DNA of 61,593 nucleotides, counting the filler, from Anaerolineae bacterium (lineage in GTDB: Bacteria; Chloroflexota; Anaerolineae; Epilineales; Epilineaceae), in assembly GCA_029262755.1 (NCBI GenBank). It is 5 parts of 5 records of this genome, joined end to end, with 100 filler letters (N's around TTAATTAATTAA, not from the genome) between each part and the next. Parts side by side here need not be neighbours in the genome. Positions count along the whole stretch, not along the records: positions 1 to 10,037 come from JAJCYU010000145.1; positions 10,138 to 20,406 come from JAJCYU010000146.1; positions 20,507 to 47,543 come from JAJCYU010000147.1; 2 more parts are not named here. The stretch is one strand, 5' to 3'. Shown in pieces: positions 9,001 to 21,000 of the stretch. How positions within the stretch are numbered: the first letter of the stretch is position 1; each line of letters opens with the position of its first letter. The position numbers were made by a program.

Positions 9001-12000
9001 ATGCGGGTTCTCCATCGTGTCGTCCCACTCCTGCCCGAACCCGACCCACAGCCGCCCGTCATTCCGCTCGAGGACCACGCGAACGGGCCGTGCCGGCATG
9101 CCGTTCGGATTGTCGCGGTCCGCGGGGTCCGGAGCGTAGGTGGTCATGTCTCCGGAATCGGTATCAAAGCGCACGAGGCCGCGCTGGGTGGCAAGCCAAA
9201 GCAGGCCGTCCGAGGACCGCACGATGTCATTGATCCGATTGGAAGGCAGGCCGTCTTGCGGCGATAGAAACTGCCGGTAGGAATCGCCTGCGAGGCTCGG
9301 GTCGGCGGACAAGGACCACCGTACGAGGCCCCCACCGTCGGTCGCGGACCACACGACGTCGTCGACGCGCAGGATCGCATTCACGCGATCGCCGTTGGCG
9401 AAGGTCGTGAAATGGCCATCCGCCAAGGGCCCGCCGGTCGCGAGATCAGGACCATCTGCGCTCTGTGCGCCACCCGGAAGGGCGGGGCCGATGGTCAGCA
9501 ATGCGGCGGCCAGCAGACCGGCGGCCCATAGGGGGCGAAGCGCAAGACCGGACAGTAGAGAAGTCGGGGGGGACTCGAGAAGAGGTTGCGGCATCAGGGG
9601 GAATCCTCGAACGCGGCTGGTGGCTCCCAAGGCAGGGGAGCGCGAGTCGAGCGGCGCGCGGAGATGGGACGTTAGACGCGGGGGAAGCGCCTTCACATCC
9701 CTCCGCACCACGCGGGGGTCGACTGTATAGACGTTGCGGACAGCCTCGGGATACGAGGCCTTATGAAATGGGCTTGACGCGCTCTGCCGGTACCCCCTGG
9801 CTAGCGACGCTAGGGTACACCACACCTGGGACACGGCAAAGCAATCGAGGACTACCGTTTGCCCCGATTCGTAGGGTGACGCACCGGGATCCGCGACGTG
9901 CAAAGTACGGCCGATCCACGTACGAACCATCGGGTGAAATCGACCGGCGGGCCGCCCGTAAGGCGGGGGGGGCGCCGGTGGGGTGTGCCCCGCCTCAGGG
10001 GGGGCGGCCAAATATGATATTTACGAACAAAGGGTGGNNNNNNNNNNNNNNNNNNNNNNNNNNNNNNNNNNNNNNNNNNNNTTAATTAATTAANNNNNNN
10101 NNNNNNNNNNNNNNNNNNNNNNNNNNNNNNNNNNNNNCACGAGGACGCCCCGCCCGACGTCATCGGGAGCATCGATCTGCCGCCCGCGATGCCACCTCGA
10201 GCGCGAATCTCCACGGTGCCGGGCACCGATCTCGCGCCCTTCGGCACGGGACTCCTGATGCAAGGGGGTATCGCATGGGTGGCGCAGGGAGACGCGGGCG
10301 TCTTCGCCGTCGACGTGCGCGTACCGGAGTTGCCCAGCGAGATCGCGCGCTTCGAGACGCGGGGCACCGCCCGCCGCATCGCGGTCGCGGGCGACCGCGT
10401 CTACGTCGCCGACGGGGAAGGCGGGCTGCTCGTGCTACGGTGGACGGATTGGGAGCCAAGCAGCCGGCTGTGGTTGCCGGCGCTGCAAGGGACACGGTGA
10501 GCAACGCGATGCGGGGGATGACGGCGCGGACCCCAGCCGTGGAGTGCACGCGCCCCGTGGCCGCGCGCATCGCGACCGCTGCGTTTGCGGCCGCTGCCCT
10601 GTGCGCGGTCGTTGCTAGCGCGCCCGGCACGGTCGCCGCGCAGGGTGATCGCAGCGTCTCCGTCGCCGGAGCTGTCGCCGGCCCCGGCGCAGCGCTCCCC
10701 GCGTACGGGCTCGTCGAGCTTGGCCGCTACGGCGGCGCGACGCGCGCCGTGAGCACGGACGGCGATCGCGTGATCGTGGGTGTGGGTACTACCGTGCACA
10801 TCTACACCATGGACGAGTCCGGCGGGACGCGTTCGCTCGGCGCGGCCGTGCGGATGCCCGGTCCCGTGACGGCGCTGGATGCCGCCGACGGACGGGTGCT
10901 CGTGGAGCTGGCGGGGCAGGCGGTGTACGCCATCGATCTGCGGGGTCCGGGCCCGGCGCGCATCGGGCGCCCGCTCGTCGGATCCGTGGCGGTCGGTCAG
11001 CAAGGCTCGCGCATGGTGCTCATGGCGCAGGGTGTCGCGTTGATCGCAGCGCGTGACTCGTGGCAGGCGGTCGACGTGTCCGATGTCTCGCGGCCGCGCA
11101 TCCTCTCTGAGGTGGCGCTGCCGGGTCCATCGCTGGGCATGGCATTGGACGGGGATCGCCTCTTCCTCCTGGCGCGCGTTTCGCAGGCCCCGCCGACTCC
11201 CGCCGATGACGCGAGCCTGCTCGCGTGGAATGTTGCCGCTCCCGCGTCGCCGGTCGCCCATGGCCCGTCGGAGGGTTTGAGGTTCGACGTCGTCACCACC
11301 CTCGTCGCGGTTGCGCAGGACGAAGCGCTTTTGCTGAACCGTGGCCGCCTCGAGGTGATTCCCGTCCCCGTGGCCGGAGACTGGGAAGCGCAGGCCCTCC
11401 TCACGGTGACGGGCCCAAGCCATGTGGTGGCCGGGTCCGCGATCTACGTTGCCATGCAGTCGCCGCGGGGTCTGGCCCGAATCGACGGCCCCACGTACAC
11501 CGTGGCGATGTTCAGCGAAGTCGATCGCCGAATCGAGCACCCGCCCGATGTTCGTGCCATGCACCTGGACGAGGATCGCCTGTTCGTGGCGTACGCGAAC
11601 GGCGGCGTGCAGGCCTTCGACCTAGCGAACCCTGAATTCCCAGTGCCGCGCGGCGAGCCCTTCGCAGCGTTCGGGGTCGTCGCGGACATCGCGTTGGACC
11701 GGAACACGGCGTGGCTCGCTACGAGCCAAGGATTGCGTGTGCTGGAACACGGTCGTGGCGGCCCGGTCCGATCCGTTGGGGAATGGCCATTGGCTAGCCC
11801 TTTGTTGGCCGTCGATGTGCAAGACGGAAGGGGCGTTGTGGCCGGCTCGCGCAGGCGACCAGACGACCATCAGGGCGAGGACGTCGTCCAATCCGGCTAC
11901 GAGAGCCTCCTGCACGTGATCGACGGTCGCGATGTGCAGAGCCCCGTCTTGGTACGGACGATCCCGCGCGATGGGATTCCGCGCGACGCGTTGGTCGAAG

Positions 12001-18000: not shown

Positions 18001-21000
18001 CTTTCGACCGGCCGTTCGTCTCACCGGCTGATACGCTCTCTGCGGACACCATGGAGAGGATCTCGATGCGCGTCGATGATGTCGCCCAAACGACCGAACT
18101 GGCCGTGTCGAATATCGTGCGATCCGCGGACATTGCGCGATCGGCACACATAGAGGCCGGCAATCGACCGCTCCCGCGCGCGTCGAGCTACCGGCGCGTT
18201 GCAGCCCGCCTCCAATGCGCCGCGGTCCTCGTGGCCCTCGCGGTCTTCGCGAGCCGTGGCGAGGCCCGCGCGCAACGCGGCCTGCCGATCGAGCGCGGGT
18301 TCACCCCGATCGCGCGCGTCAGCGATCACGTGAACGGTGTCGCCCAAGCAGGGGATCGACTCCGCGAACCAACACGACGGCGCTGCAACTCCCTCGGTTG
18401 GCGACATTATTTCCGGTCGCGCCCTAGCGCGTGCCCACCGCTATTGGTGACACCACAGGAAGGAAGATCGACGGCCCCTCTCGCGGCACGCGGTCATGGA
18501 GCATCAAGAGTCCCTCGCTTCGCAACGTGACGATCGCAGTCCGTTCGACGCCGGATATCTGATGGATGAAGCCCGGCACGTTGGTCCAGCCGAGTTCCGA
18601 CGGTGCGCGGTCTGAGCGAACCGCTAGAAGGCGCACGGAGGAGGAACCGGCCATGGGCGTGACCGCGACCCAAACGCGCCCTGCCAGGCCGTCCGCGATC
18701 CAGTTCACCGTGCCGGGAACATCCAGGTCGCCTAGGTGGCGCGGGCTCTCCGGTCGCTCTATGTTGATGGCGTGCACCCTGCCGCGCTCCCCCACAAGCA
18801 AGACCTTCCCGGCGATATGGACCGTCTCAGCAACGGGCAGAGCGGGCAGCAGTGGGCTCAGGTCGGGGAGCGCCGGGGGCCGAAATGCGGCCGCGTACAG
18901 GCCTCCGTTTGTGAGCACCGCGACGCGATCCTCGGTCAGCGCAAGGCTTTTCACGGTGCCGGGTACAGTATCCTCAGGCCATGGATCGGAGACGGGTGTC
19001 GCGGCCGATGGCTCGAGATCGACGGTGATCAAGCGGCCGTCGATACCGGTGACTGCCCAGCGGCCATTCGTGGCTACGCTGCTGAGGTTCCCATGCCGGG
19101 CCGCCCGAGGGGGAAGGGCGACTTGCACCTCGGGCTCTGTGGCACCGCATCGAAAGCGCCGCAGCACCGGCGCGCCGTCGCTCAGGACGACGAAGGTGTT
19201 TCGCGCGCCCCATGCATGGAAGAAGGCACCCATTCCAAGCGTGCCGGTTCGCCGGAGACCGCTCGGTGGCTGCACGTCCCACCAAGAAAATCGGTAGTAG
19301 GGATAGGGGTCGCTCCCCAAGAGCAACGTGCATTGCTGTTGAACAACCACCGTAGCCACGTGCATTGGCGGCGGAGGGCGCAGGGTTCGCGGCGTGCCCA
19401 GTGTCGAGGATTCCGGGCCACCACGGAAGATGAGTATCTCGTCGGCCGTGGTCAAGAACAGTTCTTCGCCGACGGCGCTGATCGACGGCCGGTACAGGGG
19501 GAGGGAATCGACCAGCTGCGGCTCCGGGTTGCCGGATTCGTCAATTCGCCAGATCTCACCCTCCGACGTCGTCGCCCAGATCGCCCCGTGCCACCACGTT
19601 GCCGCGCTGATCCATTCGACGACGGGGATCGTCCGATCCACGAAGAGCTTGGGCCACGCGGCGGCATCGGGCGATCTCCGTAGCTCCAGCAGCATGAGCT
19701 CCTTGCCGAGCAACCAGATCGAATCTCGGATCCGCACCACCCGGAACCATGCCACCCTGTTCCAATCGGTTGCTCCGTTCAAGGCGACCGGACTCAGCTC
19801 GCTCTCGTCCGCCAAGGAAAAGGCTGTGAGGCCTCTGCCTTCTGCAATCAGGACCACCAGGTCTCCGATCAACATTTCGCTCGTGGTCCCCTGCGCCATT
19901 GCCTCAGCGATAGGCCGCGGACGGCTCGAGTCGCTGATGTCGAACAGGCGGATCCGATTGCCGGGCGACGGCGGCTCCACCCACGAAGGACCGTCCGCTA
20001 CCAATGCACGATCGCCGTCCACGTGCACGCGCAACGCGTAGCGATGGCCTTGTGTGAACGCTCCGATCGGTGCACCGAAGGGCGCGGCAAGCGAGCTGGC
20101 ATCGAAGACGAGCAAGCCGGCGAAACCCGCGGTAACCAGGAGCCGATCTCCTTCGACCGCCATGTCCGTCACCGCGTCCGCGAGGAGAGGCGAACGGTCC
20201 ACCCACCGAGGCTCAGCACCCCGTAGGTCGACCCGCGCGATCCGCGGCCCCACACCGACGTAGAGCCACTCGCCGGATGGATGCACGGCGATCGCGTTGA
20301 TCGCGCCCTTGTCATGGTGGACGATTTCCACGCCTTCGCCCTGCGGCGCCCAACCCGGACTGATCGTGGCGCCGGGGGCTTGCGCGAGAAGGACCGGCTC
20401 GGGGCGNNNNNNNNNNNNNNNNNNNNNNNNNNNNNNNNNNNNNNNNNNNNTTAATTAATTAANNNNNNNNNNNNNNNNNNNNNNNNNNNNNNNNNNNNNN
20501 NNNNNNGCTCCGGCGGTCGCTGGACGGCGAGTGGGAGCTTTGGATGCCGCAATCACCGTAGCCCTTCCTGGAAACTAGCTCTTCCTTGACGCTGCCCGCG
20601 ACGCGTCACTAGACTGCGCCGCCGGCCAGTCCCTGCCCACTACTACGTGGCGCAAACGCGCCCGATCGAGGTCTGATGCTCGACTCCAAGCGTGCCCCCC
20701 GCAACGCGCCCTCGCCGCCGAGGAAGCGGCCGTGACGTCTGCCGAGGAGACGCCGTTGTCCGCGACGGAGACCGAGCTGCGCAGTGCTCGACTCGGTGCT
20801 CGACATGGTTCGCGACCCGGTGCTCGACATGGTTCGCGACCCGGTTCGCCGGTCGATTCGCCCGTGCGGGCGGCCGGCTGGGAGCTGCCGAACGCGGCGG
20901 GATGGGCGCTGCTCGCGCTTGGCCTGATCGCCTTCGTCGCCTGGTCGGCGATGCACCTTGGCTTCTTCGCATGGTCGATCGACGAGGGTATGTACCTCCA

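Follow-up and report, generated by a model that had tools for sequence, protein, structure and literature searches.

Why do neighbouring genes of an Anaerolineae genome encode proteins that finish in nearly the same short peptide, and what could such a peptide do? The question arises from contig C146 (10138-20406), which lies in a window of 61,593 nucleotides, the whole stretch of DNA analysed, and which the first-pass annotation had presented as a locus of five tail-bearing genes. All five tails were found, but only one fits the strict motif, while the other four carry a loose core, [ILVAMFT][YFWH][LIMV]P, with Arg or Lys further on. The first gene is a 3' part cut by the contig start (10138..10497, + strand), which ends in ...LRWTDWEPSSRLWLPALQGTR and has the loose core LWLP at 10468-10479. 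A paralogue of the LVIVD-type beta-propeller proteins, whose start is uncertain (10440..12830, +), has the tail ...RLWLPWAGAGGAQRR with a loose motif at 12789-12812 and no Arg or Lys at P+4, and a second LVIVD-type paralogue of 791 aa (13125..15497, +) has the tail ...QVWLPWAGSAR with a loose motif at 15468-15491. Next to these, an LVIVD repeat protein of 769 aa (15596..17902, +), which like the 791-aa paralogue has a signal-peptide-like N-terminus, has the strict motif as its exact C-terminus; this sole strict copy among the five genes, VWLPWVGR (17879..17902, +), is immediately followed by the stop codon. The last gene runs off the contig end (18427..20406, - strand), and its C-terminus, ...PSIFLPVVSPIAVGTR, holds a loose core at 18445-18468. 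Outside C146, contig C147 encodes a protein of 468 aa whose N-terminus is twin-arginine-like (SRRTFLQ; 29105..30508, -) and in which a Pro/Thr-rich stretch is followed by the tail KVYLPYGVVER, with the motif at 29111-29134.

Across the genome, the motif was counted in 3537 genes predicted by our own GC3- and codon-based caller, 3222 of which have a stop codon, and the loose core was counted where it fell within the last 26 aa of a protein. The strict motif matched 215 times in called proteins, and 111 of the 3222 proteins carry it within 20 aa of the end, compared with 3.45 expected from whole-protein shuffles and 3.78 (maximum 9) from shuffles of the last 40 aa; the reversed motif, used as a control, gave 2 tails. 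Forty-three of the 111 tails finish exactly at Arg or Lys, where the shuffles predict 0.05-0.18. The loose core lies near the C-terminus of 223/3222 proteins, where shuffling gives 34.7 on average, so that both enrichments reported in the first pass were reproduced. As a caller-free check, ORFs of 100 aa or more from all six frames, each ending in a stop, contained 437 strict motifs; the distance from motif end to stop was 0-4 aa for 90 of them, 5-9 aa for 23 and 10-14 aa for 14, with 2-14 in each of the remaining 5-aa bins. The tail is thus found on about one protein in 16, or ~6% of the proteome, with ~190 proteins above chance, and the motif has thus undergone a great expansion in this genome. 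A survey of G000 with a DNA pattern for [YF]-L-P-x3-R-stop found 7 matches where the backwards control found 2, and was dropped as too weak. Behind the motif stand 0-15 variable residues, and the first Arg or Lys after the Pro sits at P+4 in 80 of the 223 loose-core proteins but elsewhere or nowhere in 143, so the recognised unit is not sharply defined.

The 111 strict tails spread over 77 BLAST families, and their DNA consists of 111 different 24-mers with a mean pairwise identity of 0.53, in which all four Pro codons are used, confirming the codon diversity noted previously. In the protein, the Pro and the adjacent Leu are near-invariant. The tail motif is selected at the protein level. At the codon level, an excess of CTA and TTG and a lack of CTC at the Leu were set aside as a signal, because the genome-wide usage for Leu before Pro is alike.

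The motif is already known, as NCBI has catalogued it as a putative sorting motif. Two NCBIfam models of 10-11 positions, NF050076 "sort_motif_YLP" and NF053834 "ultrashort_CTERM", both named "YLP-box putative sorting motif", align to the tail residues, e.g. SIYLPMVVR, TIFLPLVQR and IYLPLVLR, and propose the same sorting role. The motif is therefore not undescribed, and the earlier statement that no NCBIfam model covers it has to be withdrawn. With curated cut-offs of 10 bits for NF053834 and 15 bits for NF050076, and listing up to E=10, NF053834 matched 11 places in G000 at 11.8-16.1 bits, over its cut-off. In hmmscan, a score of 15.2 bits was obtained on SIYLPMVVR; NF053834 gave 15.2 bits for the tail at L034:15971-16060, and NF050076 gave 15.2 bits on one of 48 tails and 9.4 on another. 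Only 2/48 tails were reported by hmmscan against NCBIfam since its speed filters drop such short matches. In six-frame scans, 2 of 14 places reached the cut-off of NF050076 and the model also matched 11/14 control genomes, so it does not discriminate there; with 10-11/14 control genomes matching as well, the NCBIfam models were unusable as a lineage probe. The C-terminal location implied by the name "ultrashort_CTERM" agrees with the 111 strict motifs near protein ends. Beyond this, the models recognise only the most canonical copies, and they also match near-N-terminal copies, which "CTERM" does not foresee. No paper on the motif or on its models was found among the listings of a literature search.

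The proteins that bear the motif look exported. Signal-peptide-like N-termini were called by a crude rule, which 22 of 87 tail proteins fail, in 65/87 tail proteins and in 15/15 proteins with a VWA junction versus 797/2321 others, so the signal-peptide enrichment described before was found again. Surface-type domains, namely GEVED, SdrD_B, beta-helix, FG-GAP, Big_9, cadherin-like, LVIVD, C25 peptidase and VWA, occur in 23/44 scanned motif proteins, and 45 of the 111 tails have a combined Pro and Thr content of 40% or more in the preceding 40 aa. The motif is associated with export signals, and there is indirect support that the YLP tail marks exported surface proteins.

Although enriched at protein ends, where the first pass had placed it as a C-terminal tail, the motif is not strictly C-terminal. 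Twelve copies, against 2.5 expected, follow an N-terminal hydrophobic segment by no more than 70 aa, just past signal peptides; others stand between linkers and downstream domains. The core also precedes 48/63 C-terminal VWA domains, close to the 49/66 given earlier. These shared cores raise the idea that tails were left behind when motif-VWA genes became truncated, which we find scarcely credible: the tails occur in all those 77 unrelated families, they are without the Cys invariably found after the motif before VWA domains, and 45/120 homologues from other sources keep the tail with no VWA domain. Since the motif sits at module borders in three settings, with a variable 0-15 residues behind Arg or Lys, it could instead be a maturation or shedding site, where an endoprotease cuts modules apart, sets the VWA domain free, takes off an N-terminal anchor or pro-piece and shortens tails to ...R. 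Clan CD (C25) proteases are compatible with Arg or Lys as the last position, and C25 genes are present. Such processing would nonetheless leave unexplained the ~190 proteins with nothing or nearly nothing behind the tail, many VWA junctions have no Arg or Lys at P+4, and several tails have Pro after Arg, a bond that most proteases leave uncut. We regard this alternative as improbable.

In AlphaFold models, the motif is predicted to be a free linear peptide outside any fold. Before a VWA domain it appeared as coil with pLDDT of ~68-75 in a model with a pLDDT mean of 89.9, and the last 10 residues of a tail protein had a mean pLDDT of 49 in a model averaging 91.4. On these values, we rejected both the idea that the motif forms a strand within the VWA fold (coil at pLDDT ~70) and that of a tail packed on its own domain (pLDDT 49).

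Homologues place the motif in a wider context. Of 120 homologues of a choice-of-anchor Q protein, 45 have the core as their ending and 9 a TM tail, and of 30 loci taken from across the phylum, 8 finish in the YLP tail, 3 in TM plus basic tail and 2 in SLH-like domains (by eye). Distant LVIVD homologues end in T9SS-like C-terminal domains, as judged by eye from the endings and from precomputed Pfam PF13860. The YLP tail thus stands in these homologues in the position of known sorting signals. Copies of the motif after choice-of-anchor Q domains extend to further families of the class and to further classes of the phylum, one tail-bearing homologue being named Chloroflexales by its source, and its supposed confinement to one order does not hold. 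If the motif were a structural linker end or a cap against exopeptidases, with no signal content, its near-constant place beside low-complexity Pro/Thr linkers or domain borders would follow; such a role seems very improbable to us, as the motif is predicted unstructured and unpacked in the two confident models, keeps the same sequence whether nothing, VWA, a linker or another domain comes next, and shares its position with known sorting signals in homologues. Newly noted here are the copies after signal peptides, the precedence before VWA, the disorder in the two AlphaFold models and the positional swap with known sorting signals.

No receptor or enzyme for the motif was found when neighbouring genes, C25/PorU-like peptidases, exosortase and sortases were examined. 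Genes adjoining tail genes showed no enriched family beyond one tandem cluster. PorU-like C25 peptidases of the genome, which reach 270 bits on NF033707 (cut-off 420) and whose own C-termini are YLP tails, were rejected as a partner: a C25/PorU-like peptidase is present in 100/151 genomes of the class, G013 bears tails yet yielded no C25 match at E<=1e-10, and G180, which does have a match, showed no tails in the 200 kb read. The genome encodes an exosortase next to an EpsI-like gene, and exosortase occurs in 5/5 genomes of the order and is absent from 4 tail-poor genomes; as a partner it was discarded because it is missing from 5 other genomes with YLP tails, while G022 has exosortase and few tails. 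The exosortase distribution tracks phylogeny rather than the motif. The three sortase matches have ~6 separate candidate substrates of their own (LPXTG/MPxAG plus TM), and G244 has the YLP tail without a sortase match, so sortase was likewise not retained.

These results bear on whether the motif is an enzyme-processed sorting signal, in which a dedicated peptidase or transpeptidase would read [YFW]-L-P, cut in or beside the motif and join the protein covalently to wall or lipid, like sortase/LPXTG or PorU/T9SS but without the membrane-spanning helper. The near-invariant Pro and neighbouring Leu recall LPXTG, the motif, followed by some hydrophobic residues and then a basic one, resembles a miniature of classical three-part signals, and the NCBI name "ultrashort_CTERM" and the PorU-like peptidases point the same way. 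On the other hand, no TM segment holds the substrate at the membrane, transfer at near-N-terminal copies would attach the wrong fragment, and in the 43 tails that end at Arg or Lys cleavage after that residue is impossible. Together with the tails of G013, the five YLP-tail genomes lacking exosortase and the separate sortase substrates, this makes enzymatic processing rather unlikely in our judgement.

The YLP-box is probably a docking tag. We consider the chances somewhat better than even that it is a TM-less linear peptide for surface sorting and retention, by which exported proteins dock to an envelope component; we infer retention, docking and the receptor. The unit consists of 8-9 residues, [IVLA]-[YFWH]-[LM]-P-x-x-x-[RK], with no transmembrane segment; it sits on multi-domain, surface-type exported proteins, usually as the tip of a Pro/Thr-rich stalk, and an envelope component would recognise the free peptide and keep the protein at the cell surface. 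We prefer non-covalent docking of the terminal peptide over sortase-like cleavage and transfer, as the motif serves C-terminally, close to the mature N-terminus and before VWA, and 43 tails have nothing cleavable after Arg or Lys. Motifs before VWA domains are internal and would fit a cleavage site equally well. A single 8-residue peptide is also a weak handle for stable anchoring. The earlier proposal of a sorting, retention or docking signal is supported indirectly by signal peptides, surface domains, position and the NCBI naming, and is corrected in that a model exists and that the motif is neither order-confined nor strictly C-terminal.

A bolder version, which we put forward tentatively and with clearly less than even expectation, is that the YLP-box works as a two-way tag at either mature end, docking ~200 exported proteins on the single-membrane Chloroflexota envelope via a receptor and with no sortase-like enzyme, the ~48 motif-VWA endings belonging to the same display system. 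If true, it would amount to a principle of surface anchoring as yet undescribed in bacteria. Filamentous Chloroflexota are abundant in sludge, sediments and mats. To our knowledge, how they retain enzymes and adhesins at the surface is poorly understood, and a tag on ~6% of the proteome, with no membrane segment or known enzyme, offers a direct experimental handle on it; the YLP-box could also be turned into a display tag of very small size. As regards annotation, most copies escape the curated models, and the near-N-terminal or pre-VWA ones do so altogether apart from some near-N-terminal matches, so that surface proteomes of the phylum are under-called.

Taken together with known anchoring systems, the YLP tail shares with LPXTG/sortase a short Leu-Pro motif placed C-terminally on exported surface proteins, frequently after a Pro/Thr-rich stalk, but it lacks the TG, the TM helix and the long basic tail; with 0-15 residues after the motif, the tails do not form the pentapeptide, TM and basic tail of LPXTG proteins. 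Similarly, PEP-CTERM/exosortase and PGF-CTERM/archaeosortase are lineage-specific C-terminal signals on many paralogous surface proteins, whereas the YLP tail has no PEP motif and no TM segment, and the PEP, TM and basic cluster of PEP-CTERM were not seen in YLP tails. Outer-membrane beta-barrel signals end in an aromatic residue, while these tails end in Arg/Lys or variable residues and belong to beta-propellers, beta-helices, VWA and other domains instead of beta-barrels. The T9SS C-terminal domain with PorU is also a C-terminal tag on many secreted proteins, and PorU-like C25 is present here, but that tag is a folded domain of ~70-100 aa and the YLP tail is 8 residues; TIGR04183, the model for T9SS cargo, had 2 matches, both on contig C168 (48.7% GC), which is probably foreign, and none in G013, G008 or G025. 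The SLH domain PF00395 had no match in G000 or G013, and in two genomes endings that look SLH-like by eye follow choice-of-anchor Q at the position of the YLP tail. Although SLH and cohesin-dockerin are folded domains with known ligands and YLP is a linear peptide without a known receptor, they resemble the favoured docking reading in the position-independent, non-covalent retention of many exported proteins.

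The strict motif [ILVAMFT][YFWH][LIMV]P-x3-[RK] is strongly concentrated at protein C-termini in the genome under study, G000, an assembly of 428 contigs and 5.06 Mb mostly at 65-70% GC, whose nearest named homologues are labelled 'Chloroflexi bacterium', 'Anaerolineae bacterium', 'uncultured Anaerolineales bacterium' and 'Candidatus Epilinea brevis'. These labels point to a probable member of Chloroflexota, class Anaerolineae, and five contigs of the assembly make up the window. A codon-based gene caller returned 3537 genes, of which 3222 had a stop codon, and among the 215 strict matches in the called proteins, 111 were within 20 aa of the C-terminus, compared with 3.45 expected from whole-protein shuffling and 3.78 (maximum 9) from shuffling the last 40 aa. 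The R/K was the final residue in 43 tails, where 0.05-0.18 were expected, and a reversed-motif control gave 2 matches. Of the 3222 proteins, 223 had the loose core, [ILVAMFT][YFWH][LIMV]P, among their final 26 aa (shuffle mean, 34.7), and a control region at 100-126 aa before the C-terminus contained it in 33 of 2352. A gene-call-free count over stop-terminated six-frame ORFs no shorter than 100 aa gave 437 strict motifs, with the distance from motif end to stop being 0-4 aa in 90, 5-9 aa in 23 and 10-14 aa in 14, and with 2-14 in each remaining 5-aa bin. The enrichment reported in the first-pass annotation was thus reproduced, and these endings, here called YLP tails, are carried by about 6% of the proteome.

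The tail logo (n = 111) reads I/V/L/A - Y/F/W/H - L (83/111) - P, followed by W/L/R - A/V/L/G/T - x and then R (102) or K (9). The tails are spread over 77 BLAST families and comprise 111 distinct 24-mers with a mean identity of 0.53, and the odd choice of Leu codons at the motif matches the genome-wide pattern for Leu preceding Pro. Considering the diversity of families and 24-mers and the genome-wide explanation of the Leu codons, the constraint acts at the protein level. The codon bias itself is a general context effect: just before Pro, CTC is avoided (0.098 versus 0.35 overall) and CTG, CTA and TTG are favoured.

The 124 internal strict matches were near chance level except for two groups. 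In the first, the motif stands directly ahead of a C-terminal VWA domain. An HMM search detected 137 VWA domains in 92 G000 proteins, 63 of them C-terminal, and the loose core preceded 48 of these 63, in agreement with the junction described earlier. At the junction, six residues separate the Pro from a downstream Cys that is invariant in two alignments, and a second Cys close to the C-terminus is nearly invariant in the same alignments; this pair framing the last VWA domain is reminiscent of the loop closed by a disulphide in vWF A domains. The junction also occurs in its exact form in named Anaerolineae-type records, the flanks of which carry tails as well. VWA proteins are greatly expanded in G000, for example at loci L022:3295-5130 (-) and L036:8676-10559 (-), and about 45 of them share a common plan: signal peptide, Cys-framed segment (C..DK.A.P....LGE.V.VTL...G.C), VWA, DUF11-like part, 'FPVPxVxV', Pro/Thr linker, YLP core, Cys, second VWA and Cys. 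In the second group, 12 strict motifs lie within 70 aa past an N-terminal hydrophobic segment, compared with 2.54 by shuffling (maximum 5) and with 4 in the next 70 aa, and most of these copies are placed between an AxA-like site and a downstream Pro/Thr linker.

Using one crude signal-peptide rule for all protein groups, signal-peptide-like N-termini were seen in 65 of 87 complete tail proteins, compared with 797 among the other 2321 (Fisher p = 6.6e-14), which upholds the enrichment noted before, and in 15 of 15 VWA-junction proteins. Pfam matches were obtained for 23 of the 44 motif proteins scanned, namely GEVED, SdrD_B, beta-helix, FG-GAP, GDPD, ASPIC, Big_9, cadherin-like, C25 peptidase, beta-lactamase fold, LVIVD, lipase, Kelch and VWA. 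In the 40 aa upstream of the tail, Pro and Thr together made up at least 40% in 45 of 111 cases. The YLP tail is a C-terminal peptide under selection that lacks a TM segment and is carried by exported proteins of surface type. One tail protein at window 29105-30508 (-) has a twin-arginine-like signal, SRRTFLQ, and the tag may also serve Tat-exported proteins. On contig C146, at window 10138-20406, which had been presented as a locus of five tail-bearing genes, the count of five stood, with the strict motif in one gene only and the loose core alone in the remaining four. Three of the five are tandem LVIVD (beta-propeller-type repeat) paralogues; at window 10138-17902 these are 48-65% identical, and the final part of a fourth is present where the contig begins. 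No close relatives of them beyond each other were found among 5.8 billion proteins.

One G000 tail protein contains a choice-of-anchor Q domain (NF041518, E = 4.9e-18). The core forms the C-terminus of 45 of its best 120 homologues and a TM tail that of 9, and one tail-bearing homologue is named Chloroflexales by its source. A survey of 301 genomes across the phylum supplied 30 loci with this domain, 27 of which showed the domain signature. Eight loci have a YLP tail, in other families of the class (G324, G244 and G082) and in other classes (G404, G372, G451, G435 and G297); three have a TM segment with a basic tail (G446, G069 and G224), and two have SLH-like endings as judged by eye (G469 and G430). 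As such, the YLP tail stands where homologues carry known sorting signals, and the earlier view that it is confined to one order does not hold. In L218 (G446) and L228 (G069), from another family of the class, the choice-of-anchor Q protein ends in 'PP(A)C' - TM segment - R, a Cys-containing C-terminal signal.

Across related genomes, we counted, in six-frame ORFs from DNA stretches of each genome, the strict motifs whose end is at most 15 aa from the stop, with expected numbers taken from internal-match density. Within the same family, G013 gave 8 (1.43 expected) and G008 gave 5 (1.05 expected), each in 200 kb, and G025 of family f4 in the same order gave 9 in 400 kb (1.13 expected). In family f5 of that order, the counts were 2 in 222 kb for G022 (1.36 expected), 0 in 80 kb for G024 (0.28), 1 in 134 kb for G020 (0.74) and 0 in 73 kb for G028 (0.17). 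In 200 kb each from other families of the class, G180 gave 0 (1.00 expected), and G068, G047 and G150 gave 1 each (0.90, 1.28 and 0.86 expected), with no convincing tail among these single matches. Judging from these counts, tail expansion is a property of particular lineages.

None of the obvious enzymes tracks the motif. G000 has three sortase matches and about six separate LPXTG/MPxAG-plus-TM candidates, and the sortase distribution does not follow that of the motif. Its one exosortase is unclassified and lies beside an EpsI-like gene (L242:1504-3274 (+), equal to C141:15144-16914); it passes the TIGR04178 signature but scores below every subtype cut-off. The exosortase gene was detected in all five genomes of the order and in none of 9 outside it; five other genomes with a YLP tail gave no match, so it does not track the motif either; its possible substrates are three proteins ending in MPEAG/MPSAG, a TM segment and basic residues. 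Two PorU-like C25 peptidases, L034:12860-16060 (+) on C304 and L037:5441-7945 (+) on C246, themselves end in YLP tails and match the T9SS sortase PorU model NF033707 over residues 262-970 at 270 bits, short of the 420-bit cut-off; G000 itself has no T9SS. Within the class, 100 of 151 genomes contain C25 matches, frequently in tandem, and G013 has tails without a C25 match. The sole two T9SS C-terminal domain matches in G000 are both on C168 (4389 bp, 48.7% GC), which together with 22 other contigs below 55% GC (148 kb in total) probably derives from another organism. SLH domains were not found in G000, and the gene neighbourhoods of tail genes showed no enriched gene family.

The earlier proposal of a sorting or retention signal is borne out in its export link and its position, and surface sorting or retention is inferred. 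That an enzyme processes the tail as a sorting signal seems unlikely, and a maturation site is more doubtful still. We prefer non-covalent docking, because the motif works at either end of a protein, because 43 tails leave nothing to cleave and because none of the enzymes considered shares its distribution. The AlphaFold model for the motif-plus-VWA module (mean pLDDT 89.9) has an ordinary extracellular-type VWA fold, with BatB, CMG2/TEM8 and vWF A3 as best matches, and the motif is coil at pLDDT of about 68-75. In a 560-aa homologue with the tail directly behind choice-of-anchor Q, the model has a mean pLDDT of 91.4 and the last ten residues average 49. Based on these two models, the motif is predicted to be a free linear peptide.

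Pfam scans gave nothing on the tail, as claimed previously. The accompanying claim for NCBIfam has to be withdrawn: when only tail regions (last 60 or 30 aa) were scanned, NF050076 'sort_motif_YLP' (11 positions, cut-off 15 bits) and NF053834 'ultrashort_CTERM' (10 positions, cut-off 10 bits) both matched, and the tail SIYLPMVVR scored 15.2 bits with each. A six-frame scan of G000 gave 11 places above the NF053834 cut-off and 14 NF050076 matches at E<=10, comprising C-terminal tails and near-N-terminal copies. Since such short matches are filtered out, hmmscan reports just 2 of 48 tails, which probably explains why the models were missed. The two models share the description 'YLP-box putative sorting motif-containing protein', and a literature search returned no paper with the term 'YLP-box'. 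Taken together, the motif is not new, being already curated as a putative sorting motif, and our analysis adds to the curated models its scale, the near-N-terminal and pre-VWA copies, its unstructured state in the predicted models, its patchy distribution across the phylum and the exclusion of the obvious enzymes.
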